DNA of 64,000 nt from an uncultured Candidatus Saccharimonadales bacterium (GTDB lineage Bacteria; Patescibacteriota; Saccharimonadia; UBA4664). Positions 13,851-31,500 of the stretch are shown here, piece after piece. The position numbers and the translations under genes were made by a program. The notes beneath the pieces are model-generated. The model saw only the letters and a list, made by a program, of their open reading frames with translations. It did not search any database and was not told where the DNA came from. Position 1 is the stretch's first letter, and every line of letters begins with the position of its first letter. Location of the stretch: assembly GCA_964609585.1 (NCBI GenBank), contig CAZSRA010000001.1, positions 45,816 through 109,815 on the forward strand, in the 5' to 3' direction.

Positions 13851-14552
13851 TTAAGCGCTTGGAGTAGTGGACGGAGGCGTGACGGTTGGCGCTTCGGTGA
13901 CTGGAGCTTGAGCGGGTGCGGGCATAGCTGCGGGTGCAGTTGGTGCCACTGCTGGAATAGCGGCGGGTGCTGCGGCCTCTGACGGCGGCGTAGCAGGAGC
14001 TGCTGGGGCTGTTGCCGGAGCGGCGGGTGTGGGCGTCGAAGGAATTGCGGGTGCTGCCGGAGTGGTGGGTGCTGGAGCTGTTGCTGCCGGCACTGCAGGA
14101 GTGGGTACGGCAGCGGGAGCTGCTGCCGGCGCGGTTGTTGCGGCCGGAGCCGGAGCCGCGGCACTGGCGGTTAAGACTTCTTTAACGATACTTGCCACAT
14201 CTTTGGGGTCGTGTTCACTTTTAATGATGTATTTGACGGCACCTTTGGCAATGGCGGATTCAGCGTCTTGTTGACCGGCGAGGTTGGTGAGCATAATAAC
14301 GGGAGTGGCCTTGAGTTTGGGGTCGGCTTTGACCTGCTCGAGAGCAGCAAGGCCGTTTAGCCGGGGCATCATGACGTCTAGAATCATGAGAGTCGGTGGA
14401 TTTTCGCGAGCTTTGTCGAGGGCATCTTGGCCGTCAACGGCCATTTGGACTTGGTAGCCTTCGAAATTGAAAACTTTTTCGTAAAGGCGAGCCATCATTG
14501 GGTCATCTTCTGCGATAAGGATGCGTGTAATCATGGCTTGATTGTACCTCAT
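13851..14552 (-). CDS. Stand-alone response-regulator receiver domain (CheY-like) with a ~110-aa Pro/Ala/Thr-rich C-terminal low-complexity tail and no DNA-binding output domain.
   Basis: Receiver signature residues are present: AEDDPMM, LMILDVMMP (phospho-acceptor Asp), LTNL (Thr) and KYIIK (Lys). The tail is APAPAATTAPAAAPAAVPTPAVP... It sits last in a minus-strand operon after the 311-aa surface protein and the sensor-like membrane protein. Confidence 0.8.
   Translation of the reverse strand: MRYNQAMITRILIAEDDPMMARLYEKVFNFEGYQVQMAVDGQDALDKARENPPTLMILDVMMPRLNGLAALEQVKADPKLKATPVIMLTNLAGQQDAESAIAKGAVKYIIKSEHDPKDVASIVKEVLTASAAAPAPAATTAPAAAPAAVPTPAVPAATAPAPTTPAAPAIPSTPTPAAPATAPAAPATPPSEAAAPAAIPAVAPTAPAAMPAPAQAPVTEAPTVTPPSTTPSA
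13860..14200. repeat. Low-complexity GC-rich coding repeat (gctgc/gccgg periodicity) encoding the Pro/Ala/Thr tail of the receiver protein.
   Basis: Direct reading shows imperfect short tandem repeats. The opposite-strand ORF 14029..14274 (Gly/Ala/Val-rich) is its antisense artefact. Confidence 0.6.
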
Positions 14553-14565
14553 ATTTTAGGAGTTA

Positions 14566-16152
14566 TTAATGGAGTTGGCGAGAAATTTGGCTGGCAAGGG
14601 CAAAAACGGGAATTGTGATTACGAGCAGGGCAAGCGATGCGCCGATAAAAGTGAGGCCAACAGCGCTTTTGGCGCTACTTAGCACCACGTCTTGGGGCTG
14701 GCCGACAAAGAGCATGCCGACAACGGTATTATTAATGTTTTTGAGTGGTAGGTACACGGATAAATAGGGTTGGCCCGCGATAGTAAAGATGCCTTTGGAG
14801 ATTTGGCCGTGTTTGATGGTGGTATCGAGTACTTGAGCGTGCGTTTCCTTGGTGCCGATGGAGCGCGAAACACCATCTAGCTCGGTGAGGGTGCTGGCGG
14901 CTCTAATGGTGCCGCTATAAACGGCGCTGTCAAGACCGGTTTTGTGTTTGAGGCCGTCGGCGAAGGCGTTGTCGAGTGCTAGGCTTACCAGGGCGGTGCC
15001 AATGATCTGGCCATTTTGTTTGATGGGGCTGGCGGTGGTGATGACGAGGGTGGGGGCGAGGGCGCCGGAATGGGCGGCGAAGCTGGAGTTGGTAGCGTTG
15101 TTTAGGGCTCGCTGTACCAGTGGGTCGTTTGAAAGTGAGTCGCCGGAGCGCTCAGGATCGGAGGCGCGGGACAAGATTCTGCCGGCGTCGTCGGTGATGA
15201 TGACCTCAGAGAGCTGTTTATTTATGAGGAGGCTACCGGTGATGTTCGTAAGTGCGGTGTGATCGTGGGCGGTGGTGGCGGCGATTGTTGCGGGGTCGCT
15301 TGCTAGAACTTCGGCATTGGTGCGGGTGTCGGCGGTTTTGCTATCGACGGCGTAGCTGAGAACTTTGCTGGTGGTTTCGAGGCTTGCGAGCGAATCGCGC
15401 TGGAGACTGCTTAGCAGGAGGGCGGAAACGCTGGTGGTGGCCGTTAGAACGATGGCGAAGGTGAGACTTGTGATGGTGAGGAATAACTGGCCGAGGAGGC
15501 GTTTGGTGAGATAACGCCAGACCCAGCGGGCAAGGAGGGCGGAACCAACGAGAATGGCCAGGTGTTCTAGTATCCAAAAAGGGCCGAAAACGGTAATGAA
15601 TGGCTGGAGGAGGGGATTACTACTGGTGCTCCAAAGTTGCGAGACGGCGAAGCTGTCGGAGAGCGTGAACGTGAGAAAAACGACAGCCAGGGGCTTTAAA
15701 TGTCGTTCAAGGCCGCGGGTGGCAATGCGCCAGTAGACGAGGCTTGTTGTGAAAGCGGCGATAGGTAAGAGGCTGGTGAGGCCGGTAGTGACTTGGGGCG
15801 GGATGATGGCGGCTGGAATCCAAGCTGGGGACGGGGTGTAGCCAGTGGTTTTGGGGCGGGGTTGAAGCGGGACAATGAGATTTCCGGTGATAATGCCGAT
15901 GTAGCCGGCAAACTTGAGCAGGTTTGCGATGAGGCCGATAAGACCAGGATTTCCCCAGGTGGCTCCGTTCATGAGGAAACCGGCGGCGAGTAATAGAAAA
16001 CCGCCACCTTTCGTGATCTCGGTGAGGTGGCGACGTTCGACCCAGGCATCCAGAAACAGCCAGGCGGCGGAGAGGCAGGCAAGAGCTGCGAATAAGTTGA
16101 TGCCGAAATGAAGGCTTTGGCCAATGAATTGGACAGAGATGACGTCTGGCAT
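14566..16152 (-). CDS. Polytopic membrane protein (528 aa). It has ~6 N-terminal TM helices, an extracytoplasmic Cache-like sensor domain and one C-terminal TM helix. No kinase, HAMP or MCP output domain is present.
   Basis: Hydrophobic helices run through residues ~1-290. TM-embedded motifs RGLERHLKP and FGPFWILEH are conserved in the paralog 37056..38804. The C-terminal part '...YLSVYLPLKNINNTVVGMLFVGQPQ' followed by a TM helix resembles the end of a Cache/sensor domain before TM2 of histidine kinases. The protein stops right after that helix. Confidence 0.65.
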   Translation of the reverse strand: MPDVISVQFIGQSLHFGINLFAALACLSAAWLFLDAWVERRHLTEITKGGGFLLLAAGFLMNGATWGNPGLIGLIANLLKFAGYIGIITGNLIVPLQPRPKTTGYTPSPAWIPAAIIPPQVTTGLTSLLPIAAFTTSLVYWRIATRGLERHLKPLAVVFLTFTLSDSFAVSQLWSTSSNPLLQPFITVFGPFWILEHLAILVGSALLARWVWRYLTKRLLGQLFLTITSLTFAIVLTATTSVSALLLSSLQRDSLASLETTSKVLSYAVDSKTADTRTNAEVLASDPATIAATTAHDHTALTNITGSLLINKQLSEVIITDDAGRILSRASDPERSGDSLSNDPLVQRALNNATNSSFAAHSGALAPTLVITTASPIKQNGQIIGTALVSLALDNAFADGLKHKTGLDSAVYSGTIRAASTLTELDGVSRSIGTKETHAQVLDTTIKHGQISKGIFTIAGQPYLSVYLPLKNINNTVVGMLFVGQPQDVVLSSAKSAVGLTFIGASLALLVITIPVFALASQISRQLH

Positions 16153-17072
16153 TATTGGGCTACAAGATAGTCATAGTTTAGGGCGGAACCGGTGGGGGCG
16201 GGAGAGTCGGTGTGAACCTGGAAACCGCTGGTGGTGCGCGTGATGTAGGCTGGCGTGCTGGCGGCGGCACCGGTGAGTGGGGTGAGCATGACATGCACGG
16301 TACTTGAGTAAGCGGCGCGGAAGGTGATGGTGCCGAGGACGCCAGCGGCGGTGCTCCCGCCAGTATTGAAGTTCAGGGTACCGGTAGTATCGTTGCCGCT
16401 GAGACTCACGGTGCCGCCAGCACCAACGGCGGCACCAGCGACAGCGCCGGGAGCAGCGCCTTGGGTTTGGAGGTGGCTAATGAGAAGCGGGCCGCTGATG
16501 GTGAGCGTATTCACGGCGATGGAGCTGGCATTGAGGGCATTTACACTGGTGGCGCCGGTGACGCTGAGATTGCCGTTGACGGCCGCAAGTCCGGTAACGC
16601 TTAAGCTCTTTTGAAAGGTGGCGAGGCCGGCTACAGTGAGATTTGAGCCGACGTTGAGTCCAGTGAGAGCAGTGGTGCCGGAAATGTTGAGCTCAGAGAG
16701 GGTGACAGGACCATTGGCATTGAAGTGGCCGCCCACACTGAGGTCCCCGCCAACATCGATTTTGCCGCGGAAGATGGTGTCGGCGCCGATGTTTAAGTTT
16801 TGCCCGTTGCTACCGAGGGTGGAGCCGACTTGGCTGAGCCGACTGAGCTCGGCTGGGGTGAGATTGGTGATAGAGGGAGTATTTGTTTTGGGGGCTGGTT
16901 GTTTACTTTTGGCATAAAAATAACCGACGGCGACGCCAATAACTATGAGAAACACGAAAAGCGCCGTGATACTGGCGGCTGTCGTGGCTCTGGCTTGGAG
17001 TTGGTTCCAGCGTGGTCCTTTCGGGCTTGCCTGTGGTTTTATAGGGTTTTGGGAAGGCGTGACTGGGGGCAT
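16152..17072 (-). CDS. Membrane-anchored surface protein (~306 aa) with beta-helix-like S/T/G/N repeats. The ATG at 17072 is preferred; the ORF track starts at TTG 17087.
   Basis: The RBS gaggaact lies 4 nt before ATG 17072. The TM helix is ITALFVFLIVIGVAVGYFYA. Repeats include 'LNISGTTALTGLNVGSNLTVAGLATFQKSLSVTGLAAVNGNLSVTGATSVNALN'. Its stop overlaps the start of the next gene (TAATG), suggesting translational coupling. Confidence 0.6.
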   Translation of the reverse strand: MPPVTPSQNPIKPQASPKGPRWNQLQARATTAASITALFVFLIVIGVAVGYFYAKSKQPAPKTNTPSITNLTPAELSRLSQVGSTLGSNGQNLNIGADTIFRGKIDVGGDLSVGGHFNANGPVTLSELNISGTTALTGLNVGSNLTVAGLATFQKSLSVTGLAAVNGNLSVTGATSVNALNASSIAVNTLTISGPLLISHLQTQGAAPGAVAGAAVGAGGTVSLSGNDTTGTLNFNTGGSTAAGVLGTITFRAAYSSTVHVMLTPLTGAAASTPAYITRTTSGFQVHTDSPAPTGSALNYDYLVAQ

Positions 17073-17100
17073 AGTTCCTCGAACCAATTGATGATTGTAG

Positions 17101-17200: not shown

Positions 17201-18019
17201 ATGAGACGATGGAATCGCCAGGTTGTGATTGTTGTGGCCCTATGTTTGGGGGTTTCGGGTATGGCTCATGCGACGCTGGGTGATCCGACTTCAACGTCGA
17301 CGAGTTATAAGGTCGTGGAAAGCGAGATAGGTGGAAGTGGCTGCGCAAATAAGACTGTTCCAGCTTGCGGCGGTTCGACCTCGTATTCGCTCGACCCGAA
17401 TGTGGATGATGGCGGTTCGACGTTGGGTGATACGGCTGTTGGAAACTCGAGTTCGACGAGTTATCAGACGAACAGCGGCTTTGATACTACGGCGCAACCG
17501 GGGCTTACAATGACAGTAAGCGGGACGCCTGCGGACTTGGGGGCGCTTTCGACGTCTGCGGCGAGTACTGCGACAGCGACTTTTAATGTTAAGAACTATA
17601 CGGCTTGGGGTTATGCAGTGCAGATCATAGGTTCGCCCCCGACCAACAGTGGACATGCGCTAACAGCTATGACGACAACTTCATATGGTGATGCTTCGGT
17701 AAATAATACGGAGCAGTTTGGACTGAACCTTGTGCACAATACGAGCCCAGTGGCTGTAGGGACTAATCCGGCTCAGATACCAAGCAGTTCGTTTAGCTAT
17801 GGCGTAGCAGGAGATGGCGCAACTGGGACATTTGGTACTAACCGGCCATATACCGTCGATGGACGATACCGGTTTGTGTCGGGGGAGACTGTGGCGAGTG
17901 CGCCAAAGTCTTCAGGTGAGACGGATTATACGATAACGTTTTTAGCGAATATGGGGCCGACAACGCCGGGTGGTAAATATAGTGGAGCATTGCAAATTGT
18001 GGCAACGGGGACTTATTGA
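17201..18019 (+). CDS. Secreted beta-rich protein, paralog family member P1 (272 aa).
   Basis: Signal peptide MRRWNRQVVIVVALCLGVSGMAHA. Shared motifs with P2-P4 are 'EQFGLNLVHN' and a C-terminal strand 'GGKYSGALQIVATGTY' that ends exactly at the stop. Confidence 0.7.
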   Translation: MRRWNRQVVIVVALCLGVSGMAHATLGDPTSTSTSYKVVESEIGGSGCANKTVPACGGSTSYSLDPNVDDGGSTLGDTAVGNSSSTSYQTNSGFDTTAQPGLTMTVSGTPADLGALSTSAASTATATFNVKNYTAWGYAVQIIGSPPTNSGHALTAMTTTSYGDASVNNTEQFGLNLVHNTSPVAVGTNPAQIPSSSFSYGVAGDGATGTFGTNRPYTVDGRYRFVSGETVASAPKSSGETDYTITFLANMGPTTPGGKYSGALQIVATGTY

Positions 18020-18023
18020 CGCG

Positions 18024-18048
18024 TTTATAATGCTTATGTTAGGCTGAC
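18024..18048 (+). promoter_or_regulatory. Conserved promoter-like motif with a plus-strand TATAAT (18026-18031) upstream of P2.
   Basis: About 20 of 29 nt are identical to the motif at 17101-17129. Confidence 0.35.
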
Positions 18049-18103
18049 TGTAGTTATTGCGTAGATGGCTGTAAAAGCGTAAGGGTAAAGGAAAACTGAG
18101 ACA

Positions 18104-19234
18104 ATGAATAAGAGAGAGATTTTAAGAGCTCACTATATCGGGTTGCTGAGAAAGGCGATGAACTGGGCTGGGCTTTTTGCCTTACTCTCTACGACACTCA
18201 TGGCGAGCCCGGTGAGTGCTACGGCTGGTGTGCTTGGCACAAGGAGTTCTACGCTCAACAACTCAAAGGGTGCGGCAACAAACGTTACGTCCACATTTCT
18301 TGTGACTCCTGGTACGAGCGCAACAATTAAGGGTGTGAAGTTTTCTTTGTGTACTTCGCCGCTTCTGTCTGTCTCATGTGCATCACCCGCAGGAGCGACT
18401 CTGGCTGCTGCTACGGCTGGATCGCAGCTAAAGAATGCTGGTGCTATCACAAACCCCTACGCTAGCCCGGCATACACAAGCACGACCGATGTGTGTTTTA
18501 CGAACGCTACCGGTAACGCTTTTAACGGCTCGTCGGACACGTTTACTTTTCCGCTTCAGGTTATAAGCTTGCCAACAGCCGTAAATACTCAGTTCTACTT
18601 CCGTGAGCAAACGTTCTCTAGTGCTGACTGTACCACGACTGCAGTTGACTTTGGTGGCTTTGCCGAGTCGACAACTCAGCAGCTTTCTGTGACAGCGAGC
18701 GTTCAAGAAAACTTGGCATTTTGTGTAGGTAACGCGAACCCTTCAGGTACATGTGCATCGATTGGGACTGGTACTGTAACCTTAAGCCCATCTGTTATGA
18801 CAACGAGCGCTCCGTCGATTGGTAACGCTTGGATGATGGTAACGACCAATGCTGGTACAGGTTATGTCATTACGTATAACGCAACTTCGTTTACTGATAC
18901 GACCTCCGATACCATCACAGCTGCTCCATCGGGTGGAGCTGCCCTTGGAGCAGGCGGCAGTGAACAGTTTGGCTTCAACTTGGTGGCAAACTCGGGTGGT
19001 AACTTCGGAACGTTCGGTGCTGCGCCAACGAACAGTGGTGCCGCAACGAGCCCCTATGGCACTAACAACCAGGTGGCCTATAACACTGCGGGCGCTACGC
19101 AGGTTGCGAGCTTTGGTAGCCCGACCGCGAGTCCGCAGACCTACACCATCTCATACGGTGCTAACGTAGCAGCTACTACTAAGGCTGGTGTTTACACATC
19201 GACGCAGACGTTTATCGCGACCGGCACTTTTTAA
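18104..19234 (+). CDS. Secreted beta-rich protein, paralog P2 (376 aa). An alternative start at 18158 is possible.
   Basis: The hydrophobic signal is LFALLSTTLMASPVSATAG. Shared motifs are 'EQFGFNLVANSGG' and the C-terminus 'AGVYTSTQTFIATGTF'. Confidence 0.7.
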   Translation: MNKREILRAHYIGLLRKAMNWAGLFALLSTTLMASPVSATAGVLGTRSSTLNNSKGAATNVTSTFLVTPGTSATIKGVKFSLCTSPLLSVSCASPAGATLAAATAGSQLKNAGAITNPYASPAYTSTTDVCFTNATGNAFNGSSDTFTFPLQVISLPTAVNTQFYFREQTFSSADCTTTAVDFGGFAESTTQQLSVTASVQENLAFCVGNANPSGTCASIGTGTVTLSPSVMTTSAPSIGNAWMMVTTNAGTGYVITYNATSFTDTTSDTITAAPSGGAALGAGGSEQFGFNLVANSGGNFGTFGAAPTNSGAATSPYGTNNQVAYNTAGATQVASFGSPTASPQTYTISYGANVAATTKAGVYTSTQTFIATGTF

Positions 19235-19247
19235 CCACTCGTCTTTC

Positions 19248-19281
19248 AAATACACGCACTTGGAATGGTGCGTGTATTTTT
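19248..19281 (+). terminator. Rho-independent terminator after P2.
   Basis: Stem aaatacacgcac pairs with gtgcgtgtattt across loop ttggaatg and is followed by a T-tract. The RBS aggagag lies before ATG 19297. Confidence 0.65.
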
Positions 19282-19296
19282 AATCAGGAGAGAGAT

Positions 19297-21057
19297 ATGA
19301 AGCAATTTATCCGTTTCAGGAGTCGCACGAAAAAATCGCTTGCTGTGGTCGCAACATTGGTGATTGAAATGGGTAGCTTGTTTCTGCCAGCAATGTCAGG
19401 GGTTGCTCAGGCGTCGCCTAGTATTACTGAGTATTCTGTTCCGACAGCTAGCGCCACGCCGGAGGGGATAACATTTGGTCCTGACGGGGCTTCTTGGTTT
19501 GTAGAATACAGCGGTAATAACATCGGACGTATTGATGCGGATGGTTCTGTTGTAGAATATGCGATCCCGACAAGCGGTGCTAACCCTTACAGTATTACGA
19601 CTGGGCCAGATAATGCTCTTTGGTTTACGGAATTTAGCAGCGGCAAAATTGGACGTATCACTACGTCGGGTACTATAACGGAGTTTTCAATCCCTTCGAG
19701 CACCCCGCGGCCGTATGGTATCGCCACTGGGCCCGATGGGGCTTTGTGGTTTACTGAGACCAACGCAGGAAAAATCGGGCGAATTACTACTTCGGGTAAT
19801 ATTACTGAGTTTAGTATTACGGGTAGTTTGACTCTTGTTCCGACTGGCATTGCTTCCGGTTCAGACGGCGCTCTCTGGTTTGCAAATTATTCAGACAATA
19901 GCATTGGCCGCATCACGACGAATGGGGTGGTTACGATATACCATATTCCGTCGACTGCTCAAGGTGGAGCTACGACTGGACCTTACGAAATTACAAACGG
20001 ACCCGATGGCGCCTTATGGTTTAGCGAGCTTTCCAACGCGAATCACATTGGCAGGATTACTACTTCGGGTGTAATAACCGAATTTCCGATACCGACATCA
20101 TCTGCATACCCTCTAGGGATTACGGTGGGATCGGATGGGGCTCTATGGTTTACTGAACTCGCAGGAAATAAAATTGGTCATATAACGACTTCGGGTGATG
20201 TGACTGAGATTTCAGTACCGACGGATGGTGCTGAGCCGGCTGAGATTACGGCGGGAGCTAATGGTTCGTTATGGTTTACGGAGGACACCGGAAAGATCGG
20301 TTATATCTCTACTGCACCAGTTGCATCATCTGCTCCGACTGGTTTGAGCGCTGTAACTCCTACAAATAATGCTCCGGTTCTAACTTGGAACTCGGTACCT
20401 ACGGCTGCGAGCTACCAGGTGTGGCGGCAGGATACTTTGACTGGCTTGACGGTGGAGGCGGCATCTAATGTGGCGACGAATAATTTCACGGATGTGTATT
20501 CGCCGGGCGTCTACAATTATACGGTGGTGGCTGTGAATGGTGCCGGGGCAATGAGCGCGCCGTCGACGGCTTTTCAGGTGGCGGTTACGAATACGGCAGC
20601 GACAAACTCACGCAATCTTATGGCCCAGGGTCAGTCCCAGGTGCTACCTGCTTTTGGTAGGGACATTTTGCCTGGTTTGGCTTCTGGTAATGCAATTCAA
20701 GCTTCGTTTGACTTTGATTTGGGGTATCCGGGTGGTGTGTTTACGGTAACTCGTCCACTTACTTTTACGTTTAATGCTGGTGGACACACGTTGTTCATTG
20801 CTGCAACAAGCTCCGATTGGTTGGTGATAAATGGTGCGAATAACGCTCAAGGGACATTCCAGGGGGTTGCTAGGGTTGATCTTGATAATGTGACGACGGC
20901 TGGACTGCCTTACACGGTGACGGCGGTGGATGGTATGCAGGCTGGGGGCGGTGTGTCTAGTAGCTTTAAACTTACGGTTTTTGCCGATAGCTCTCGTTCT
21001 ACCGTTTTGTATTCGGTAAACGGACCGCTGACAAAAGGCAAGATTAAGGTGAATTAG
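19297..21057 (+). CDS. Secreted protein with a 7-bladed Vgb-like (streptogramin-lyase-type, COG4257) beta-propeller, then an FN3-like domain and a C-terminal domain of unknown function.
   Basis: The blade repeat 'ITE(F/Y)(S/P)(I/V)P...P(Y/E)GIT.GPDGALWFTE...(N/G)KIGRITTSG' occurs seven times. 'PTGLSAVTPTNNAPVLTWNSVPTAASYQVWRQ' is FN3-like. An N-terminal signal peptide is present. Confidence 0.75.
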   Translation: MKQFIRFRSRTKKSLAVVATLVIEMGSLFLPAMSGVAQASPSITEYSVPTASATPEGITFGPDGASWFVEYSGNNIGRIDADGSVVEYAIPTSGANPYSITTGPDNALWFTEFSSGKIGRITTSGTITEFSIPSSTPRPYGIATGPDGALWFTETNAGKIGRITTSGNITEFSITGSLTLVPTGIASGSDGALWFANYSDNSIGRITTNGVVTIYHIPSTAQGGATTGPYEITNGPDGALWFSELSNANHIGRITTSGVITEFPIPTSSAYPLGITVGSDGALWFTELAGNKIGHITTSGDVTEISVPTDGAEPAEITAGANGSLWFTEDTGKIGYISTAPVASSAPTGLSAVTPTNNAPVLTWNSVPTAASYQVWRQDTLTGLTVEAASNVATNNFTDVYSPGVYNYTVVAVNGAGAMSAPSTAFQVAVTNTAATNSRNLMAQGQSQVLPAFGRDILPGLASGNAIQASFDFDLGYPGGVFTVTRPLTFTFNAGGHTLFIAATSSDWLVINGANNAQGTFQGVARVDLDNVTTAGLPYTVTAVDGMQAGGGVSSSFKLTVFADSSRSTVLYSVNGPLTKGKIKVN

Positions 21058-21148
21058 ACGCTCGTTTTGAGTATGAGGTTCGTTGACTGTTCTCACCTAG
21101 GCGCGTAGTATAAGCTTAAGCAATTTATATGAGCTTGTTTTGTAGATT

Positions 21149-22261
21149 ATGAAAATAAAAAACCTGCTTGCTAGAAGTCTGATTGTAATGATTGCGGTGG
21201 CGCTTGTGCCTGCATTTGTGAGCGAGGCAGCGCAGCCCACAAACCGGGTGTTGGCACTAGGAAGTTCGGCTACTAGTGCGGTTACGACATACGCGTTTAG
21301 TTTTAAACCTGCAACGACCGGGAATATTGGGGCGATAAAATTTGAGGTTTGCGACTCGCCACTTGAGGCTTTTGGTTGTGTGAATACGGGCGACTCAAAT
21401 GGTGTTAGTTTTACTTCCAGTGGCGCGAGTATCCAAAGTCAATCAGGTATTTCGGGTTTTACGGCTGGTACGGGGACACCGCCCGCTCCTACTACAAATA
21501 CGTTTTGGATTACAAATGGCACACCGCAGAATATAAATTCGAGTACGACAGTAACGGTAACATTTCAAAATGTGCGGAACCCTTCAGCTGCAAATAAGGA
21601 GTTTTATGGCCGGATGACGACTTATTCGGATTCGGCAGGAACTGCTGAGGTAGATTTTGGGGCAGTCGCAGTGGATACGGTGAGTCAAATTACGGTAACG
21701 GGTAATATGCCCGAGAGCCTGGTGTTTTGTGTGGGGACGAGTGGGACGGACTGCACGAATCTCACAGGAACGGCCGTAACGCTCGGGACGTTTTCGCCGG
21801 TGAGTACAAATGTGGGCACGAGTTTGATGAGTGCGAGTACAAATGCTGGTTTTGGATATGCGATTACGCTCGTGGGAACGACGCTCACGAGTGGGTCGAA
21901 TACGATTCCGGCTATGGGGACGCAGTCGCTGAACTCGACTGGCTGTGCAGTGAGCTGTACGTCGGCTACGGGGACGAGCCAGTTTGGTTCGAATGTGCGG
22001 GCGAATAATGTGGCGTCTGCCGGTGGAGTCTTTGGGGCGGACGTGACGCCAACGGGGGCTGGTTTTAACGGTGTAGGAGCGGGCGGGTACAATACGGCAA
22101 ATTCGTTTCGGTTTTTTAATGGTGATACGGTGGCGAATTCGGGTGGAACAACGTCTAAGGCACAGTTATTTACCAATTCGTATCTGGTGAATGTAGGTGG
22201 GGATCAGGCCGCGGGAGTGTATACAGCTACGATGACTTATATCTGTACGGCGACGTTCTAA
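21149..22261 (+). CDS. Secreted beta-rich protein, paralog P3 (370 aa).
   Basis: Signal MKIKNLLARSLIVMIAVALVPAFVSEAA. Shared motifs are 'SQFGSNVRANNV' and the C-terminus 'AGVYTATMTYICTATF'. Confidence 0.7.
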   Translation: MKIKNLLARSLIVMIAVALVPAFVSEAAQPTNRVLALGSSATSAVTTYAFSFKPATTGNIGAIKFEVCDSPLEAFGCVNTGDSNGVSFTSSGASIQSQSGISGFTAGTGTPPAPTTNTFWITNGTPQNINSSTTVTVTFQNVRNPSAANKEFYGRMTTYSDSAGTAEVDFGAVAVDTVSQITVTGNMPESLVFCVGTSGTDCTNLTGTAVTLGTFSPVSTNVGTSLMSASTNAGFGYAITLVGTTLTSGSNTIPAMGTQSLNSTGCAVSCTSATGTSQFGSNVRANNVASAGGVFGADVTPTGAGFNGVGAGGYNTANSFRFFNGDTVANSGGTTSKAQLFTNSYLVNVGGDQAAGVYTATMTYICTATF

Positions 22262-23406
22262 TGAAGACTTTGCGCAGCGTATTGCGGCGTCACAATCTCC
22301 GCTTCGCATTCGGGGTACGTCTGAGTACTCCTCATTTGCGATGCTCATTGTTCCTTGCACTCCATCTGCGCAAAGCCTTCATTAATGCAGCTACATTGCG
22401 GCGCTCACTGGCTTGGATGCTGGTGTGGGCGCTGGGGCTAGTGCCGTTTACGGCATCGGCGGCGGGTTTGTCGCCGCGCAACATTGCGGTGGGATCGAGT
22501 GCGCAAGGGGTGACGACGAGCTATACGGCGAATTTCACGACAGCAACGACGGCCAATATTGGCTCGATTAAGTTTGCTTTTTGTGATAGTGCCACGGGTA
22601 CGTGCAATGTGCCGGCGGGGGTGGTGACGACATCGGCGACGCTATCGGCGCAGTCGGGAGCGGTCGGGTTTTCGATGGTGAATGCGACGAACGGCGCACC
22701 TTACATTACGCGCGGGGCGGCGAATTTGAATAGCGGCACGGCGGTGAGTTATACGCTGGGCTCGATTACGAACCCAGCAGCGACCAATACCAGCTACTAT
22801 GTGCGGATTACGACATATACGGGGTCGGACGGAGCTACCGGGGCGACTGATACGGGTACGGTGGCGCTCAGCACAGCTCAGCCGGTGCAGCTTACCGGGG
22901 TGACGCCGGAGATTTTGGTATTTTGTGCTGGTACGTCGATTACGAGTGACTGCACGACGGTATCGGGTAATACGATTGATTTTGGGGACTTTTCGCCGGT
23001 AGGGACGCGTAGTGGTACGAGCGTAATGCAGGCGCAGACGAATGCAGCGAACGGTTACTCGATAACGGTGAACGGTACCACGCTGTCGTCGGGCATCAAT
23101 ACGATTCCGGCGCTGGCGTCGCAGACGGCGAGTGCTCTGGGGGTGGGTCAATTTGGGCTGAATGTACGGGCTAATACGGTGCCGGCGGTGGGGGCGGATC
23201 CAACGGGCAGCGGGAGTGGGACGTTTTCGGCGAACTATGGCACAGCCAACCTATACCGATTTGTGAGTGGGGATAGTGTGGCCCAGGCAGCGGCGCCAAC
23301 GAACGCAAATACGTTTACTTCGAGTTATATTGTAAATATTGGTGGAGCGCAGGCAGCGGGCGTGTATACGGCGACAATGACGTATATTTGTACAGCTAGT
23401 TTTTAG
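22261..23406 (+). CDS. Secreted beta-rich protein, paralog P4. It is the closest paralog of P3. The true start is probably TTG 22396 or ATG 22420, which gives a normal signal peptide.
   Basis: ATG 22261 overlaps the P3 stop (TAATG), but it would add a 45-aa Arg-rich N-extension. The region 'RRSLAWMLVWALGLVPFTASAAG' aligns to the P3 signal peptide. The C-terminus is 'AGVYTATMTYICTASF'. Confidence 0.6.
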   Translation: MKTLRSVLRRHNLRFAFGVRLSTPHLRCSLFLALHLRKAFINAATLRRSLAWMLVWALGLVPFTASAAGLSPRNIAVGSSAQGVTTSYTANFTTATTANIGSIKFAFCDSATGTCNVPAGVVTTSATLSAQSGAVGFSMVNATNGAPYITRGAANLNSGTAVSYTLGSITNPAATNTSYYVRITTYTGSDGATGATDTGTVALSTAQPVQLTGVTPEILVFCAGTSITSDCTTVSGNTIDFGDFSPVGTRSGTSVMQAQTNAANGYSITVNGTTLSSGINTIPALASQTASALGVGQFGLNVRANTVPAVGADPTGSGSGTFSANYGTANLYRFVSGDSVAQAAAPTNANTFTSSYIVNIGGAQAAGVYTATMTYICTASF

Positions 23407-23451
23407 CTTCAGGGTTGCACATGATCTGGGCTTTGGGATACACTTCAGGTA

Positions 23452-24432
23452 ATGCTTAAGAAGTTTGTGAGTGGTGTTATGTTGGCGGGGAGTGCAGTTG
23501 TGGCACTCTCATCTTGGGCGGTGGCTGCGACGCCACCGACAGGTGCGTCTACGGGTTCGCCGGGGCAGGGACTTGAGATTTCGCCGCCGGTGATTGAGCT
23601 GTCGGCTGATCCGGGTCAAACGGTAACGGCTAGCATTCGTGTTCGCAATGTGACTCAGGGCGAGCTGATCGCGAAGGGTAAGGCCGATGACTTTGGCGCC
23701 AGTACGGATGAGACGGGTCAGCCGAGGCTGCTCCTCGATGAGACGGGTGAGACCCGGTTTTCTTTGAAATATTGGGTACAGGGTGTGCCGGATTTGCGGC
23801 TCGCACCACAAGAGTTGAAAACGAACGTCGTTAAGATTGTGGTCCCGGCAAATGCGGAACCGGGCGGACATTTTGGGGTGATCCGGTTTACCGCGGTACC
23901 GCCAGATTTAAATGGTACGGGTGTGGCGTTGTCGGCTAGTGTTGGGGCGCTTGTGCTCCTGAAGGTAAGCGGGACCATTACTGAAAAGGTGAGCTTGGCG
24001 GAGTTTTCAGCCCTTCAGGGTGGAAAGAAAAGCGGCTTTTTTGAGCATGGGCCGATAGACTTTTTGGTGCGGGTGCGAAATGAGGGGAGTGTGCACGAGA
24101 AGGCTCAGGGCAGCATTTCGGTGACCAATTGGCAAGGTAAGCAGATTGCATCGATACCGGTGAATGCAAAGGGTGGGAATGTATTGCCGGATAGTATTCG
24201 GCGATTTGAGCAGAGTTTGAGCGAAAAGCAACTATTCGGGCATTATTCCGCTAAATTAGCTTTGAATTATGGTGGTGGCAAGCTGCTAAGTGCATCGCTT
24301 GGGTTTTGGGTGATTCCGTGGAAGCTTATCCTGCTGGTTTTGCTCGGAATTATCGTAGTAGGCTATCTGCTTAGAATTGGCCTACGTAAGTACAATGAGC
24401 ATATTATTGCGCAAGCAAGACGTCGCCGCTAA
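23452..24432 (+). CDS. Cell-surface protein (326 aa) with an N-terminal signal peptide and a C-terminal TM anchor plus basic tail. It is DUF916/DUF3324-like (CscA-like).
   Basis: Signal MLKKFVSGVMLAGSAVVALSSWAVAA. 'ISPPVIELSADPGQTVTASIRVRNVTQGEL' fits the DUF916-type pattern (..PGQ.qtl.v.v.N.s..). The C-terminal 'WKLILLVLLGIIVVGYLLRIGLRKYNEHIIAQARRRR' is a TM helix followed by a charged tail. Confidence 0.45.
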   Translation: MLKKFVSGVMLAGSAVVALSSWAVAATPPTGASTGSPGQGLEISPPVIELSADPGQTVTASIRVRNVTQGELIAKGKADDFGASTDETGQPRLLLDETGETRFSLKYWVQGVPDLRLAPQELKTNVVKIVVPANAEPGGHFGVIRFTAVPPDLNGTGVALSASVGALVLLKVSGTITEKVSLAEFSALQGGKKSGFFEHGPIDFLVRVRNEGSVHEKAQGSISVTNWQGKQIASIPVNAKGGNVLPDSIRRFEQSLSEKQLFGHYSAKLALNYGGGKLLSASLGFWVIPWKLILLVLLGIIVVGYLLRIGLRKYNEHIIAQARRRR

Positions 24433-24456
24433 GCCGCTTGTGCTAAACTGTGAAGC

Positions 24457-25413
24457 ATGAAAGCTGGTTTATTACAGCTCGTAGCGCACGAGCATAGTGG
24501 CAAAATGCGGCCGCATGCTCACACTTCGTATGCGAGCCTTGTGTTTTTGTTGATCTTGAGCGGTATAGTGCTGCTGGCCTCAAGTCTGGCTGTGCAGGCG
24601 GCACCACCGGCGGTAAATCCGCAGAGCGGCTCGGTGGGTCTATCTGGAACCGTGCCGGGACCGCCGCCTACGACGTCGGCGGTGATTTTGAGCCCGCAGT
24701 CGGGTTCGCATGTTTCGAGTAGCCCGGTGACGGTGTCTGGGACGTGTCCGTTGCATACGTTTGTGAGCGTAGAAAACAATCAGGTATTCGCGGGCGTAAC
24801 GAGTTGTGGGGCGAATGGGACATTTTCGCTATCTATAGATTTGTTTGCTGGAGCGAATGTACTTGTGGCTAGGGTGTCGGATGCGCTTGGGCAATTTGGG
24901 CCGGATTCGGCCGCGGTAACTGTATTTTATGATGTGTCTAGTCCGAGTTTGGCTGGTGGTTTGGCGGGGAAGCCGTTGTTTTTGCAGTCGACTTCGATGG
25001 TGCTCGGCACAAGTCCTGCTCAGATTCTGGTGCGGAGCGTGACGATCGTTGGGGGTGTGGGGCCGTACGCCGTTAGTTTTGATTGGGGAGATGGCAAGAG
25101 TGATCTTGTGAGTACAGAGGCCGAGGGTGCAGTGGAGGGTCGTCATGCGTATAGCCAGCCGGGCAATTATCAGGTGATTGTAAGGGCGACAGACGCTCGG
25201 GGCAACAATGCCTTACTTGAGCTTGTGACGGTGGTGAATGGGCCAATCGCCGCATACGGCGCAAATAACGATACAGGACTGGGTGCAATGCCCGGGGTAC
25301 TCTTGACGGCTTGGCCTTTGTACACTTTGGCTTTTTTTATGGTTGGGTTTTTTTGGCTCGGTGAGCGGCACGAAAATCGCAAATCGCGACGCAATCAGTT
25401 GCATTTGCAATAG
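24457..25413 (+). CDS. Membrane-anchored protein with Ig-like domains, a PKD domain and a C-terminal TM helix.
   Basis: PKD signature 'VSFDWGDGKSDL...GRHAYSQPGNYQVIVRATDARGN'. The N-terminal hydrophobic segment is SLVFLLILSGIVLLASSLA. The C-terminal helix is LLTAWPLYTLAFFMVGFFWL. Confidence 0.7.
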   Translation: MKAGLLQLVAHEHSGKMRPHAHTSYASLVFLLILSGIVLLASSLAVQAAPPAVNPQSGSVGLSGTVPGPPPTTSAVILSPQSGSHVSSSPVTVSGTCPLHTFVSVENNQVFAGVTSCGANGTFSLSIDLFAGANVLVARVSDALGQFGPDSAAVTVFYDVSSPSLAGGLAGKPLFLQSTSMVLGTSPAQILVRSVTIVGGVGPYAVSFDWGDGKSDLVSTEAEGAVEGRHAYSQPGNYQVIVRATDARGNNALLELVTVVNGPIAAYGANNDTGLGAMPGVLLTAWPLYTLAFFMVGFFWLGERHENRKSRRNQLHLQ

Positions 25414-25520: not shown

Positions 25521-28500
25521 ATGATTTTCAAGCTTATCAAAAAGCATTTGAGTAATCTGATAAATCCTCGTACTGCTCTGGCCTTTATTGGGCTTGGGCT
25601 TGTTTCGGTTGGAATTGCGGGACTTAATGCGCAATCGGCTCAGGCCGTGGGTGCCGCTGGAATCAATCAGACTATCAACTACCAAGGCCGGCTCCTCAAT
25701 GCGGCTGGGGCCGTGATTGCTGATGGTACTTACAACATGGAATTTAAAATCTACCAAGATGGTGATGGTTGTGTGTCTGGTGGTACCTCGCCGTGTAGCG
25801 GTACTTTGAAGTGGACGGAAGATTGGATCAATAGCGGTACGGACAAACGGGTGGTCGTGAAGAATGGTTACTTTTCGGTAAACCTGGGGAGTGTTACCGC
25901 TTTCGGTGGTTCGGTGAACTGGAACTGGGACACTTTGTGGCTAACTCAGACGGTGGCTTCGGGGAATCCTACTGGGAGCTGTACGCCTTTCTCGACTTGC
26001 AATAGTGGTAACGAGCCGGAAATGCTGCCGATGAAGCGGTTGTCGAGTGCGGTGTACGCCTTGAATTCGCAGCAACTTGGAGGACTGACGGCGGGGCAAT
26101 ACGTACAGCTAGCGCAGGGAGTGCAAGCAGATTCGAGCACGACTAACCCATCAATTTTTATCAATAAGACGGGTGCGACGGCCAACATTTTGGAGCTGCA
26201 AAAGGCAGGGGGAGATGTGTTGACGGTGAATAATGCTGGTGCGACTACTTTGCAAAATAGTACCGACTCGGCAACGGGCTTCTTGGTGAAGTCGGCCTCT
26301 GGTTCGCTGAATGCGTCGGTGTTTGATGTAGACACTTTGAACCAGCGCATCGGGGTCAACACGAATGCTCCGAGTGATACATTCCAGATTAATCAAGGGA
26401 CGACGGCGCTGCCGGGGACAGTATCGAACAGCGCTAGTTCGCCGAATGTGACGGGCTCTGCTACGACATTTACCACGAGCTTTTTGGTAGGGGATACGTT
26501 TACCGTTACTTCTACGACTAATACTTGTACGATTTTAAGCATTACCGACAATACTCATTTGGTTTGTACGGGAAATTTGAGCACGCTTTCGTCGAACTCG
26601 GCTTACACGATGGGTAACATTGGGCGGATTGGTGTTTTGGCCAATGGCTCTTTGGGCGTGGGGACGACGAGTCCGACGCAATCCTTGCAGGTGACGGATG
26701 CGGGTGGAAATACGGCATTTTCGGTAGACACGCGCAACCTCCGGGTGGGCATTGGGACGGCAAACCCAACGAACCGATTTACGGTAAATGGTGGCAATAG
26801 CTTATTTACCAATACTTCGACTACGAGTACGACGCCAACGTTGTCGGTAACCACTACGGCGACTCCGACGACGGGTAATACGATTACGAGCTTGTCGAAC
26901 ACCCTTACGAACACGCCGACGAGTGTGGCTAACACGGCAATTGGGCAGGCTGTGACGGTGACAGATGCGACGACGCTTGCGAACACGCTCCAAGGTTTCA
27001 GCTTGGTCGTGAGCGACACCGGGACTGGGGCGAAAGTGGTGCGGGGACTGAGCGTGGATACCACTGGTACGACGAACGGGTCGGCCGCGGTGACGACGGC
27101 ATTGTTTAAGGCGGCCACTTCAACTACGGCTTTCCAGGTGCAAAATACTAGTTCGCAGGCGATTTTGGCTGTGGACACTTCGGCTAATGTAGTGGCGATT
27201 GGCGGCACCCAGCCGACGGTACAAAGTGCTTCGGGTAATTTGACGGTACTGGCCCAGGGCACTAATCAGTTGTCGCTTGATACGGGTAGTACTGGAACAG
27301 TGGTGGTGGGTAGCAGCAATGCGGCAACGGTAACGATTGGTAATTCGAACACGGCAACGAATGTGACCGGGATTTTGGGTGGTGCGGGGGCGAGCGGCGG
27401 TGGGATTAATATTGGTGGTGGGACCAATGCCCAGACTGTCAATATTGGTAGTACGGTGGCGGCAACAGCGGTCAATATTCAGGGTGGTTCGACTGGCGGT
27501 ATTAACATTGGTACTTCGGGTAGTCCGACGATCACGATTGGTAACTCGGCCACGACAACCAAGATGGGCGGACGCGTCGGTGTCGGCACTGCGGCTCCGA
27601 CGGAGCAGCTGGACGTTGAAGGCCAACTTCCCTCTGCGACTATAGGTAGCGCCTTTACAACCGGAAATCCCGCCTACGATGTAGCTACCGAAGGGCAGTA
27701 CGCCTACACTGCTTCTTACGGTAAGTTTGATACTTGGGACGTTACTCGCCCAAGCGCACCGGTCAAGTTGGGAACTCTCTCCATCTCTACCGGCATCGTT
27801 TATGTGAAGGTTAGTGGTAAATATGCCTTCGTAGTAAATGGCACAACCAGTCAGCTCTACATCATAAACATTAGTAATCCTGCTAGCCCGTCACTGACTG
27901 CTACAGTTGGCACCTCAGTAACTGTGGGTACCCTAACCCAGTTAAATACGGTGGCGATACAGGGCCGTTATATGTACCTCGGCGCATCTACGGTTAGCAA
28001 TAATTACGTTCTTGTCTATGACATTAGCAATCCAGCAACTCCGCAGTATGTGGCGAACGTTATCGAAACACAAGGCGTAGACTCCATAGCGATCCAAGGT
28101 ACTTACCTTTATGCCACGATTGCTGCCACCGGTTTGCAGATAGTTGATATCTCCAATCCCGCAGCGCCTGTCAACAAGGGGTCTCTTTCTTCCTCCTCAA
28201 CTAATACCGTTATCGTACAAGGCCGGTACGCCTACTTGTCTCTCGGTACTACTTTGCAGGCGGTCAACGTATCTGATCCAACCGCTCCCGTGAGCGCGGG
28301 GACCGTCACGCTTGATAGCTCAGAATCAAATATGGTTATGCAGGGAAAATACATATATGTAGCTATCAGCACCTCGCATGAGCTTCAGGTAGTTAACGTT
28401 TCGAACCCGGCTTCAATGAGCATCACGGGAACTATCGCCACCGGAACCGAAGTCCGATCCGTCGCCCTAGCCGGCAACTACGCTTATGTATCCGACTATA

Positions 28501-31500
28501 CCAACGGCAAAATCCTCGTGTACGACATGGGGGGTGCTTATATACAGCAATTGCAAGCTGGAGGTATAGCCGCCACAACGCTCGATGTCAGCAACAGCCT
28601 ACAGGTGGAGGGCGCCGCAAGCTTTTCGAATGGCCTGCGTGTAAATCAAGGATTTAGCGCAGATGGAAATAGCAGCGTTCAGGGTAGTTTCCAGGTACAA
28701 AATGCGAGCGGTACAACAGTACTCAATGCCGACGCGACTCAGGGTACGCTCACGACTAACGGGGGCAGCTTAACTATAAACGGTATAGCGAATCCCGCTG
28801 CGCCCACACTTACTAGCAGTAGTACGGGCGGATCGCTGGCTGCTAATACCTACTTCTATAGGCTCGATGCGGTAGGTACGGGTGGCAGTGGGACAACCGC
28901 GGGAATTCCATCTAGCCCTGGGTCAGTCACGACCTCTGGAAGTGCTAGCCAAAACACGTTGTCATGGACTGCGGTACCTAATGCCACTGCCTATGACGTT
29001 TACCGCTCGATCGATGGCGGAAATACTTGGTTTTATAACCAATTCAGTAGCGCTACAACCTCTATTATCGACAATGGCAGCACCTATACATGGGCTACGA
29101 GTGGTTCTTTCTCCAATTTCAGCAATGCTGGTGGTATAAACTTACAAAAAAGTACGGGAATTACCTTCGACGCGGGTTCTGGGGGGACGTATCAGATGGA
29201 AATATTTGATAACGTTAACGGCGGCAATACCCTGACGATGGGCAACTATAACGCTGGTGGGAGTGTAGACATACAGGGTCAGAATTTTTACCTAACTGAT
29301 ACTAGCACGTATAACCACGACTTTAGCATGACAAATACGGGTGCAATCACTCTCAAAAACAGTGTGAATTCATCGGCGGCGTTTCAGGTGCAGAACTCGA
29401 GCGGAGCGAGTTTGCTGGGGGTAAATACGTTGACGAGCAATTTGAATTTGGTTGCTAATCCGTCGTTTGAAGTGACGACGAATGGGTGGAGCCTGCGTGG
29501 GGCAGCGACGGTCACTTATGACGATGCGGCTGGTAACGCACTCTACGGCGGCTCGACGCTTAAAATGGTGAATACGGCTTCGGGTGATGGGGCGAAGTAT
29601 TCATATCCTTTACTGCCGTCGCAACAATATTCGCTGAGTATGTGGGCCAAGGCGTCGGTAGCGACGACGATGATCCTGGGTCGGCAAGAAAATGGGTCCG
29701 ATGTGGAGACGGGTTGTGTGGCGGCTAGTGTAACCACGAGCTGGACTCAGGTGACTTGTACGTTTACGACGGGTGCAACGATTAACACGGCGAGCAATAT
29801 TTACATTCGCCAGACGGTGGCGGGAACTCCGACCGTGTATCTGGACGGGGTAATGCTTGTGACTGGCGCGACGGTCCAATCGTATGTGGCTCCGTCCAAT
29901 AACTTACAGGTGGATGCTGGGTCGAGCAATCTGACCCTAAACAACGCGAATACGGGTGAGCTCCAATCATGGCGGCAAACTAATGCCATGGGGACGGGCC
30001 GGCGGTACGCCAGCACCGTAACTGCTAATGGTTACATCTATTATATTGGTGGCTGTACCGGAGCTTGTAGTGCTGGGCTTGGCGTTACCACGGTGGACTA
30101 TGCCAAGATTAACGCGGATGGATCGGTGGGGACTACGACATGGTCTACCACAACGGCTTTGCCGCAAGCACGTTATGGTCACACGGCGTTTACCCTTAAC
30201 GGGTATCTTTATGTCGTAGGTGGAGATAATGCTACAGGAGCTCTAAATGCCGCGCCCCAAACCACGGTGTATTATAGTCGGCTAAACCAGACTGATGGTA
30301 CTTTGGGCAGTTGGCAGACATCGGCGAACTCCCTGCTGGCAGCGAGAGAGTTTCATACGTCAGTTACTGCTAACGGCTATGCTTACGTGATTGGTGGCGA
30401 CAATGCTGGGGCGCAGTCTACGGCATACTATGCAAAGCTGTACTCCGATGGTTCAACCGCGGCGTGGGCTACTACAACACCTCTAAGCACCGGCGCTGCC
30501 GTTCGCCGGGAGGCGGATTCGGTGGTAGCGAATGGCTACGTGTATGTGATAGGTGGCGATAGTGCCGGAACGGCGCAGTCGACCGTGTATTACAACAGCT
30601 TAAACGCCGACGGTACATTGGGTGCTTCTTGGGCTAGTACAACGGCATTGCCACAGATACGGCGCTACGAGACGACTGTTACGGCAAATGGCTATATTTA
30701 TGCGATTGGCGGTGATAACGGTAGTGGTGTTGCTACCAACACTGTTTATTATGCGGCAATTACGGCGGGTGGTCTGATTGGCTCATGGTTTACGAACGGA
30801 ACAACCTTGCCGGCTGCACGGTGGGGGCAGTCGACTATGCTTGCTAACGGGTATGTCTATGCTTTGAGCGGTTATGACGGCTCTAATCCTCAGCCAACCG
30901 TTTATTATGCTAGTACTTCACGAGTGATGCTTGGTGGTTCTTTGGATCTTGTGGGTCTTAATTCGCAGACCTTGACGGACCCGGGCGGGGCGGGATCGAT
31001 TGTTGCTGGTAATATTCGAGCCGTGGGTGCGCTTCAAGTGGAGGGATTTGCTGACTTTAATACGGGTCTGGCGGTGGCCAGTGGCCTCACTATCAATACG
31101 GTGGGCTCAAGTGCTGGGCAAACGATTCTTAATGCCAACGATTCAAGCGGCAACAGTATTTTTGGGCTTAAATATCTAGCAGGGAATTTCGGTGCTTTCG
31201 CGTCCGCGGGTGCGTTTGTGAGCAAGAACAACTATTGGGGCGAGGAGTTTAACGTTACCCAGACGAACGTCTGTAGCCGCACGACCACAACGAATGGCTG
31301 GAAGGCGCGTGGTGACTTTGGAAGTAATGGTGGTACGGCCTGTACTCCAGGTGACGGCGAACTCGCCTTTAGTTCCGTTTTGGGAGTAGCAGCTAGTGGT
31401 AATACGAGCGCGGCTTGTACTTCTAACTCGGGGGCCTGTGGTGGTAGCTTGCCAGCGGCAAACTACGGGCTTGAGCGAATATCGGCGGTGTCTACGATTA

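Follow-up and report, generated by a model that had tools for sequence, protein, structure and literature searches.

The closest described counterpart of the genes considered here is the pam operon of Candidatus Mycosynbacter amalyticus, a parasite belonging to the Candidate Phyla Radiation (CPR), in the fibres of which cryo-electron microscopy (cryo-EM) identified the pilins PamA and PamB (bioRxiv 10.64898/2026.03.03.709456). In both pilins a single linker strand joins an N-terminal sandwich of nine strands to a C-terminal domain (CTD) that is Ig-like and truncated, and cryo-EM of the PamA and PamB filaments gives donor-strand exchange as their mode of polymerisation. According to this preprint, the rest of the operon encodes the pilin PamE, the single-domain tip pilin PamT, the chaperones PamC and PamD, which are PapD/FimC-like with a transmembrane helix at the C-terminus, and PamR, an RbmA-like, transmembrane-anchored protein that is proposed to be the terminator and anchor of the fibre. 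The name pam stands for Pap/Fim-like pilus of Mycosynbacter, and the system has neither an usher nor another envelope-spanning machine. The locus described here occupies positions 17201–25413 of a 64,000 nt stretch of DNA (contig CAZSRA010000001.1 of assembly GCA_964609585.1, positions 45,816 to 109,815 of the forward strand; the whole stretch is referred to as the window) from an uncultured Candidatus Saccharimonadales bacterium, and is very probably a new, somewhat divergent member of the Pam pilus system, carried in a CPR chromosome.

A second type of surface locus, the WxL or cell-surface complex (csc) cluster of Firmicutes, was the one proposed in a preliminary description of this DNA. 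Such clusters are defined by the presence of two or more WxL-domain proteins, with a dual W-x-L motif, beside a WxL-interacting protein (WxLIP), which consists of two Ig-like domains and a transmembrane helix (Hassan et al., PMC10599100). WxLIP, also called CscA, is made up of DUF916 (PF06030), DUF3324 (PF11797) and the C-terminal helix, and a small LPXTG-anchored protein of the CscD type and a host among the Lactobacillales or Bacillales are further marks of these clusters. AlphaFold2 predicts that a hairpin strand of WxLIP completes the WxL sandwich (Hassan et al., PMC10599100), which is in effect donor-strand complementation.

The Pam system was described by Troman et al. in 2026, and NCBIfam 20.0 contains models of it. 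The earlier statement that assembly of this kind would be undescribed for such an organism does not therefore hold, as a description from the CPR exists both in the preprint (bioRxiv 10.64898/2026.03.03.709456) and in the NCBIfam 20.0 models.

The pilin genes and the conserved operon

Seven consecutive genes lie on the + strand within the locus. These are P1 (17201–18019, 272 aa), P2 (18104–19234, 376 aa), a gene for a 586-aa Vgb-like propeller protein (19297–21057), P3 (21149–22261, 370 aa), P4 (22261–23406, 381 aa as annotated), and the genes for a 326-aa transmembrane-anchored protein (23452–24432) and a 318-aa protein with a PKD domain and a transmembrane segment (24457–25413). The gaps between the genes are short, from -1 to 107 bp. 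The preliminary description counted eight consecutive same-strand genes for exported proteins; the order and strand are as described, while the eighth gene is the 2452-aa open reading frame (ORF) at 25521–32879, beyond the end of the locus. An N-terminal hydrophobic segment is above threshold in six of the seven products in a Kyte-Doolittle scan, and the P2 h-region, WAGLFALLSTTLMASPVSA, falls under the threshold yet has the appearance of a signal peptide, such that all seven products are predicted to be exported. In the 326-aa and 318-aa proteins there is also a hydrophobic C-terminal helix followed by basic residues.

Profile searches with Pfam and NCBIfam find no usher family in the locus and no sortase in the locus or its annotated neighbours, and there is no LPXTG motif in any of the eight products, which agrees with the absence of sortase and usher reported earlier. 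No further chaperone or pilin genes were found elsewhere in the window.

That P1–P4 are paralogues, as first proposed, is confirmed by pairwise alignments far above chance. P3 and P4 share 48% identity (E 3e-78) and P2 and P3 share 35% (E 5e-31). P1 can be aligned solely to the C-terminal ~165 residues of P2–P4, with 29% identity to P4 (E 5e-12). The internal motif described for these proteins is exact, reading EQFGLNLVHN, EQFGFNLVAN, SQFGSNVRAN and GQFGLNVRAN, with the Q, F, G, N and N of QFGxNxxxN invariant, and all four paralogues likewise end in the shared strand (A/C)T(G/A)(T/S)(F/Y). All four score above the 55-bit cut-off of the NCBIfam model for the Pam pilus pilin, NF058581, at 131 (P1), 83.4 (P2), 119.8 (P3) and 171.4 bits (P4).

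P1 also matches the PamT model, NF058579, over its full length (224 bits, E 1.8e-66; equivalog cut-off 240). It has one truncated Ig-like domain, of the Pam pilin C type, and carries no hydrophobic linker or donor strand. Where P2–P4 have the linker consensus PE-I/S-L-V-F-C-x-G, the alignment places in P1 the stretch STLGDTAVGN, which is not hydrophobic and fits a tip subunit that would serve as strand acceptor and not as donor.

The remaining three are two-domain Pam pilins, among which P2 is the most divergent paralogue and P4 the most conserved. P2 orthologues in related loci have merely 33–61% identity, and those of P4 in the 14 closest loci have 63–81%. The AlphaFold2 model of P4, with a predicted local distance difference test score (pLDDT) of 87.7, contains nine strands in residues 28–159, a strand at 174–179 and a CTD at 205–334. 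This is the published architecture of a Pam pilin, with its nine-strand N-terminal domain, linker strand and CTD, and so supports the identification. Among the 12-mers of 62 P4-family sequences, conservation is highest in the C-terminal strand QAAGVYTATMTY (0.98), followed by the linker GVTPEILVFCAG (0.97). That the linker and the strand of the acceptor groove are the most conserved parts of the pilin fits continued strand exchange, and strong conservation of the donated strand and its binding site, as seen here in the P4 family, is also reported in the preprint (bioRxiv 10.64898/2026.03.03.709456). From its position and conservation, P4 is probably the counterpart of PamE, nearest to the base of the fibre.

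The annotated P4 start, ATG 22261, adds 45 residues that are missing in the homologues, and as these are 336–349 aa in length, TTG 22396 or ATG 22417 is the likelier start. A sequence search of the PDB with P4, the 326-aa protein and both family profiles returned nothing meaningful, and no PamA or PamB cryo-EM chains were detected in it. There are six cysteines in P2, seven in P3 and five to six in P4.

The 318-aa protein matches the PamR model, NF058578, over profile positions 2–293 of 297 (292.6 bits, E 2.3e-87; equivalog cut-off 300). It also contains a PF00801 PKD match of 28 bits and a transmembrane segment at residues 280–299. Previously taken for a PKD membrane protein that was cargo or partner of the complex, it is by this match instead a PamR-like protein, for which the role of pilus terminator and membrane anchor is proposed by homology. 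That the PamT and PamR scores are slightly below their equivalog cut-offs would suggest that this is a diverged lineage.

A scan of one genome per species gave 36 loci, and the conservation of gene order in these was assessed by ORF-by-ORF BLAST. Thirty-one of these are labelled as Saccharimonadia, Saccharibacteria or Patescibacteria metagenome-assembled genomes (MAGs) and five as "bacterium" or "uncultured bacterium". The named homologues are Candidatus Saccharimonadia, and the host is a member of the CPR/Patescibacteria. The recurring order is a divergently transcribed 311-aa transmembrane protein, PamT, one to four two-domain pilins, a homologue of the 326-aa protein, PamR and a giant protein. 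The 326-aa homologue is present in 35 of the 36 loci, placed after the pilins and before PamR, which is conserved after it in 35. PamT opens the operon in 30, the rest being incomplete contigs, and the giant protein is downstream of PamR in about 25. A homologue of the divergent 311-aa protein, identically placed and oriented upstream, occurs in 15 of the 36. The co-occurrence of the paralogue family with the transmembrane-anchored protein, for which a synteny search had been suggested, is therefore conserved, while the pilin copy number varies from one to four and the accessory genes differ from locus to locus by gain and loss.

With the Pam operon of M. amalyticus this locus has in common the family of the pilin CTD, a first gene that is PamT-like, two-domain pilins in which the linker is conserved, a transmembrane-anchored chaperone with two Ig-like domains, a PamR-like last gene, a giant tail fibre-like neighbour, a CPR (Saccharimonadia) host, and the lack of usher and sortase. 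It is unlike that operon in having a Vgb-family propeller gene inserted among the pilin genes. There are also points that weigh against its identification as a Pam locus. One chaperone gene is present here, compared to two in M. amalyticus, and there is no pilin of the 55-kDa size of PamA, all three two-domain pilins being of PamB/PamE size. The 64-kb window has no ATP synthase genes, whereas an ATP-synthase neighbourhood is reported in the preprint. The scores of P1 as PamT and of the 318-aa protein as PamR are just under the NCBIfam equivalog cut-offs, and the 326-aa protein, which has no NCBIfam match, is likened to PamC and PamD by description, fold and position. The roles given to PamC/D, PamT, PamE and PamR are AlphaFold-based, in a preprint that is not peer reviewed (bioRxiv 10.64898/2026.03.03.709456). 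A fibre in this organism is predicted from its genes, and its polymerisation is argued from homology and conservation.

The propeller gene and the hairpin 3' of P2

The 586-aa protein encoded between P2 and P3 belongs to the PF24684 propeller family (E 1.3e-102) and consists of a signal peptide, a beta-propeller, an FN3-like region and a C-terminal domain of ~160 aa. Within this broad family it falls short of the streptogramin B lyases, the Vgb(A) and Vgb(B) models giving 283 and 277 bits against an NCBIfam cut-off of 600. It is not a pilin, having no similarity to P1–P4. A Vgb-like gene between pilin genes is seen in none of the 36 related loci. The contigs of the closest chaperone relatives (P0002 and P0003) are too short to tell if they share the insertion. 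The best matches to the protein are mostly to the propeller alone and come from non-CPR bacteria. Full-length homologues are sited outside pam operons (P0248, with 50% identity over 100% of the length, and P0249, with 57%), and P0248 adjoins giant-, o165- and Dsb-like genes that resemble neighbours in this window. The gene is preceded by its own Shine-Dalgarno-like AGGAG.

The earlier proposal that the propeller protein is cargo or partner of the surface complex is not favoured, either as cargo or as subunit, given the lack of pilin similarity and its absence from this position in the 36 loci. It would appear instead to be a secreted accessory of the surface-protein neighbourhood of this lineage that has landed inside the operon. 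A role as the pilus tip adhesin is unsupported, neither a pilin domain nor a strand resembling the linker having been detected in it.

The propeller gene bears on an alternative explanation of the whole operon, in which the Pam homologues would be monomeric or oligomeric adhesins or would form an S-layer-like coat, with the propeller, for example, as a displayed host-binding head. This could accommodate a fibre deduced from genes alone and an operon that departs from the type in its single chaperone, its lack of a large PamA and its extra propeller gene with its own AGGAG, as well as the second chaperone that occupies the propeller slot in one related locus (L002). It is nevertheless improbable, since the parts of the pilins that are most conserved are the linker and the acceptor-groove strand, while the propeller has neither Pam pilin domain nor linker similarity, is between pilin genes in none of the 36 loci, and has its full-length homologues outside pam operons.

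In L002 (DIZX01000011.1), a Patescibacteria MAG, the second chaperone gene (343 aa, 65% identity to the 326-aa protein) lies between P2-like and P3-like genes, in the slot of the Vgb-like gene, which suggests that this slot is a hotspot of gene gain and loss. Upstream of the pam operon of another locus, L001, a stand-alone 208-aa ORF (2802–3428) corresponds to residues 402–585 of the Vgb-like protein alone (34% identity, E 6e-21). This would make the C-terminal domain of the Vgb-like protein an independent module.

Between P2 and the propeller gene, directly 3' of the P2 stop, there is a stem-loop of 13 bp followed by a U-run (19248–19280, +), which is a candidate attenuating terminator. Its folding has a centroid of -18.5 kcal/mol and a z of -5.3, with none of 200 shuffles equally stable. 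A scan for consensus terminators did not list this hairpin and was not enriched over shuffles. The hairpin could attenuate transcription, so that P2 would be made in excess over the genes downstream. Major pilins are made in excess in Pap-type operons, to which this arrangement may be likened.

The probable membrane-anchored chaperone and its likeness to WxLIP

The 326-aa protein has the architecture that was first ascribed to it, with a signal-like N-terminus, DPGQTVTASIRVRNVT at residues 53–68, a C-terminal hydrophobic helix and an RRRR tail. The helix spans residues 278–313 by hydropathy, and residues 290–325 are helical in the AlphaFold2 model (pLDDT 86.3), which consists of a signal helix, two Ig-like beta-sandwich domains and a long C-terminal transmembrane helix. 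By homology this is a PamC/PamD-type membrane-anchored chaperone.

When the model is compared with the PDB using Foldseek, the first match is 9i1y_A, the WxLIP of Enterococcus faecium (E 1.9e-11), and 9i25_C, WxLIP "bound to long WxL", is also matched (E 4.6e-11). The chaperones of chaperone-usher systems rank after these, with CfaA, Caf1M, FimC, DraB, CsuC, SafB, CupB2 and YadV at E 1e-8 to 1e-6, and agree with the description of PamC/D in the preprint. The protein scores 13.7 bits with PF06030 (DUF916), below the gathering threshold of 27.3, and similar sub-threshold matches are present in 44 of 60 of its homologues, the best at E 2.4e-4. There is no match to PF11797 (DUF3324). The two domain searches that had been suggested for this protein have therefore given a weak result for DUF916 and none for DUF3324.

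Profile comparison by hhalign was made against six proteins annotated as "DUF916 and DUF3324 domain-containing" from Enterococcus, Melissococcus and Lactiplantibacillus plasmids. At full length the 326-aa family aligns to these WxLIPs over 254 columns (Prob 93.7%, E 1.9e-7). Without the signal peptide and transmembrane helix the values are Prob 37% and E 3.5e-4, and domain 1 against DUF916 alone gives Prob 77% and E 2.1e-5, while domain 2 gives no signal against DUF3324. Nine controls, of column-shuffled, WxL and pilin profiles, have a Prob of at most 0.4% and an E of at least 0.14. The fold match, the hhalign result and the sub-threshold PF06030 score concur, and the description of this protein as DUF916/CscA-like has been upheld. 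The 326-aa protein resembles WxLIP but falls short of the Pfam criteria, with PF06030 below threshold and PF11797 unmatched.

For P1–P4 the comparison with WxL loci gives the opposite result. There is no match to PF13731 (WxL) at E values up to 1 in P1–P4 and 61 P4 homologues. TasA and SCPU, the other identities suggested for these proteins, have no meaningful Pfam match in P1–P4 or these homologues, with SCPU found in one of 64 sequences at E 0.038. In hhalign the pilin family has a Prob of 0.3% against eight annotated WxL proteins. The W-x-L triplet is absent from mature P1–P4, being found in the P4 leader only, and no WxL chain is among the P4 fold matches listed. An identity of P1–P4 as WxL, TasA or SCPU proteins is therefore rejected, on Pfam for all three and also on hhalign for WxL.

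Of the csc/WxL-like locus first proposed, it is the transmembrane-anchored, WxLIP-like partner that stands; the paralogues are not its WxL clients but Pam pilins. The loci are alike in the architecture of this partner, for which WxLIP is the best solved-structure match with remote sequence similarity in domain 1, in the prediction that the partner donates a strand completing the beta-sandwich of its client, and in non-covalent assembly. They are unlike in their clients, which here are unrelated to WxL proteins by sequence, profile and fold search and have no WxL domain or dual W-x-L, in the lack here of an LPXTG CscD-like protein and of detectable DUF3324 similarity in domain 2, and in that Pam clients build fibres by polymerisation, while the description of WxL proteins is of a peptidoglycan-bound form. 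In outline, the non-covalent assembly of beta-rich surface paralogues with a transmembrane-anchored two-domain partner is still to be expected. A transmembrane-anchored protein with two Ig-like domains that stabilises incomplete sandwiches, in a system assembled non-covalently, makes the earlier model right in that outline, but the locus is not a member of the WxL/csc class.

A true csc/WxL-type surface complex would have P1–P4 as WxL-like proteins held at the wall by a CscA/WxLIP-type protein, would carry the propeller and PKD proteins as its cargo and would form no fibre; such a complex is accordingly very unlikely. What speaks for it concerns the 326-aa protein: the signal peptide, two Ig-like domains and transmembrane helix that it shares with WxLIP, the structural matches, which include the WxLIP-WxL complex 9i25, the hhalign values set against those of the controls, the weak PF06030 matches among its homologues, and the sandwich-completing strand likewise predicted for WxLIP (PMC10599100). 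The clients decide against it, as they have no PF13731 match and no W-x-L in the mature proteins and pass the Pam pilin model. There is also no DUF3324 signal and no LPXTG CscD-like gene, and the host is a CPR bacterium, not one of the Lactobacillales or Bacillales.

The likeness between the two partner proteins may have an evolutionary basis. It is possible, and is put forward tentatively, that the PamC/D-type chaperone and the Firmicute WxLIP/CscA proteins are homologous, both being membrane-anchored chaperones of the donor-strand type in bacteria that have no outer membrane. A link between Pam and WxLIP is not mentioned in the preprint defining the Pam pili (bioRxiv 10.64898/2026.03.03.709456), and of the four papers in the library searched that mention WxLIP there is, by titles and abstracts, none on Pam or chaperone-usher pili. 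Residues 83–110 of the 326-aa protein form a loop or hairpin with a pLDDT of 63–83, yet rank with the best-conserved stretches of this protein family (ETGETRFSLKYW, 0.89), and are paired by hhalign with the conserved 'SLKY' stretch of WxLIP. This region is a candidate for the strand that is donated to the pilins.

Assembly at this locus, as a Pam pilus, can be proposed as follows. All of the products would be exported by Sec, and the 326-aa protein would be held in the membrane by its C-terminal helix, from where its Ig-like domains may cap the incomplete pilin CTD by strand donation. P1, the PamT-like protein, offers an acceptor domain alone with no donor linker, such that the fibre would start at the tip with P1. 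P2, P3 and P4, each with a nine-strand N-terminal sandwich, a hydrophobic linker and an acceptor domain, would then join successively by donor-strand exchange, and because each linker would fill the groove of the preceding, more distal subunit, the fibre would grow at its base. The PamR-like 318-aa protein would place its N-terminal strand into the last pilin, probably P4 as the equivalent of PamE, and its transmembrane helix would anchor the fibre in the membrane. Neither usher, sortase nor ATPase would be needed. Contact with a host bacterium is the most likely function of such a fibre.

Such a scheme has much in common with the Gram-negative chaperone-usher pili (Pap, Fim, CFA/I, Caf1 and Csu), which likewise have donor-strand complementation and exchange, a PapD-like chaperone with two Ig-like domains, a tip subunit without a donor strand and a terminator subunit. 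It differs in that there is no outer-membrane usher here, the chaperone is membrane-anchored and not soluble, the pilins have two domains with the internal linker as donor strand, and the fibres would, by homology, be extended and not coiled. That the locus is a misread classical chaperone-usher or sortase-dependent Gram-positive pilus locus is scarcely credible, even with the fold matches of the chaperone to CfaA, Caf1M and FimC and of the P4 model to shaft pilins of Gram-positive bacteria and tandem Ig domains of MSCRAMM proteins, as the matches to Gram-positive pilins are generic ones between Ig folds with low TM values, no ORF in the locus is usher- or sortase-like and LPXTG is absent, the chaperone is transmembrane-anchored, unlike periplasmic PapD and FimC, and the pilins have an extra N-terminal domain with the donor strand internal and not N-terminal.

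Neighbouring genes and significance of the locus

The window is chromosomal, containing parA/parB, prfA, prmC, rpsB, tsf, frr, uppS, rseP, proS, lepB and htrA. Scans of it for tRNA genes and Rfam families were empty. GC skew is positive in all 2-kb bins over the whole 64 kb (0.06–0.33), with a GC content of 50–59%, and as most genes are on the + strand this may reflect either leading-strand or coding-strand bias.

Giant secreted proteins with LVIVD and Kelch propellers are abundant in the window. The one downstream of the operon, the 2452-aa protein at 25521–32879 (+), matches Pfam LVIVD (E 9.6e-32) and Kelch (E 1e-15) and probably corresponds to what the preprint calls a 'tail fibre-like protein'. 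Between it and the surface-protein genes further downstream the only minus-strand gene is at 32958–34073 (-), whose 371-aa product has pentapeptide repeats and a signal-like N-terminus. On the other side of the operon, divergent from P1, is the 311-aa transmembrane-anchored repeat protein (16152–17087, -), which is beta-helix-like and has a weak bactofilin match (E 0.007). This protein is not named in the available text of the Pam preprint (bioRxiv 10.64898/2026.03.03.709456).

Further upstream there is a 528-aa multi-transmembrane protein (14566–16152, -) with a dCache_3/sCache_3 sensor domain (E 4.7e-20) and no kinase domain, adjoining a response regulator that consists of REC alone and a long tail rich in Pro and Ala (13851–14552, -). 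In L006 and L009 the same pair is likewise found upstream of the pam genes, and a second Cache membrane protein, a paralogue of 582 aa, is encoded 20 kb downstream (37056–38804, +). Two paralogous exported proteins of ~768 aa with a C-terminal thioredoxin/DsbE-like domain (11529–13838, + and 34736–37039, +) each have giant secreted proteins as neighbours, together with a membrane protein of the Cache type. These DsbE-like proteins could oxidise paired cysteines of the pilins.

The locus is one more, somewhat divergent, example of the Pam system, a fibre of donor-strand exchange with neither usher nor sortase, which the episymbionts of the CPR probably use to reach their hosts. What is new beyond the published description is that the nearest solved relative of the Pam chaperone is the WxL-interacting protein of Firmicutes. 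Should this be due to common descent, it would tie a large and poorly understood class of Gram-positive surface clusters to the strand-complementation chemistry of pili. The Pam pili of the CPR, the WxL/csc complexes of Firmicutes and the chaperone-usher systems of Gram-negative bacteria would then lie on a single evolutionary continuum, with strand complementation or exchange as a possible mode of action in WxL clusters too.

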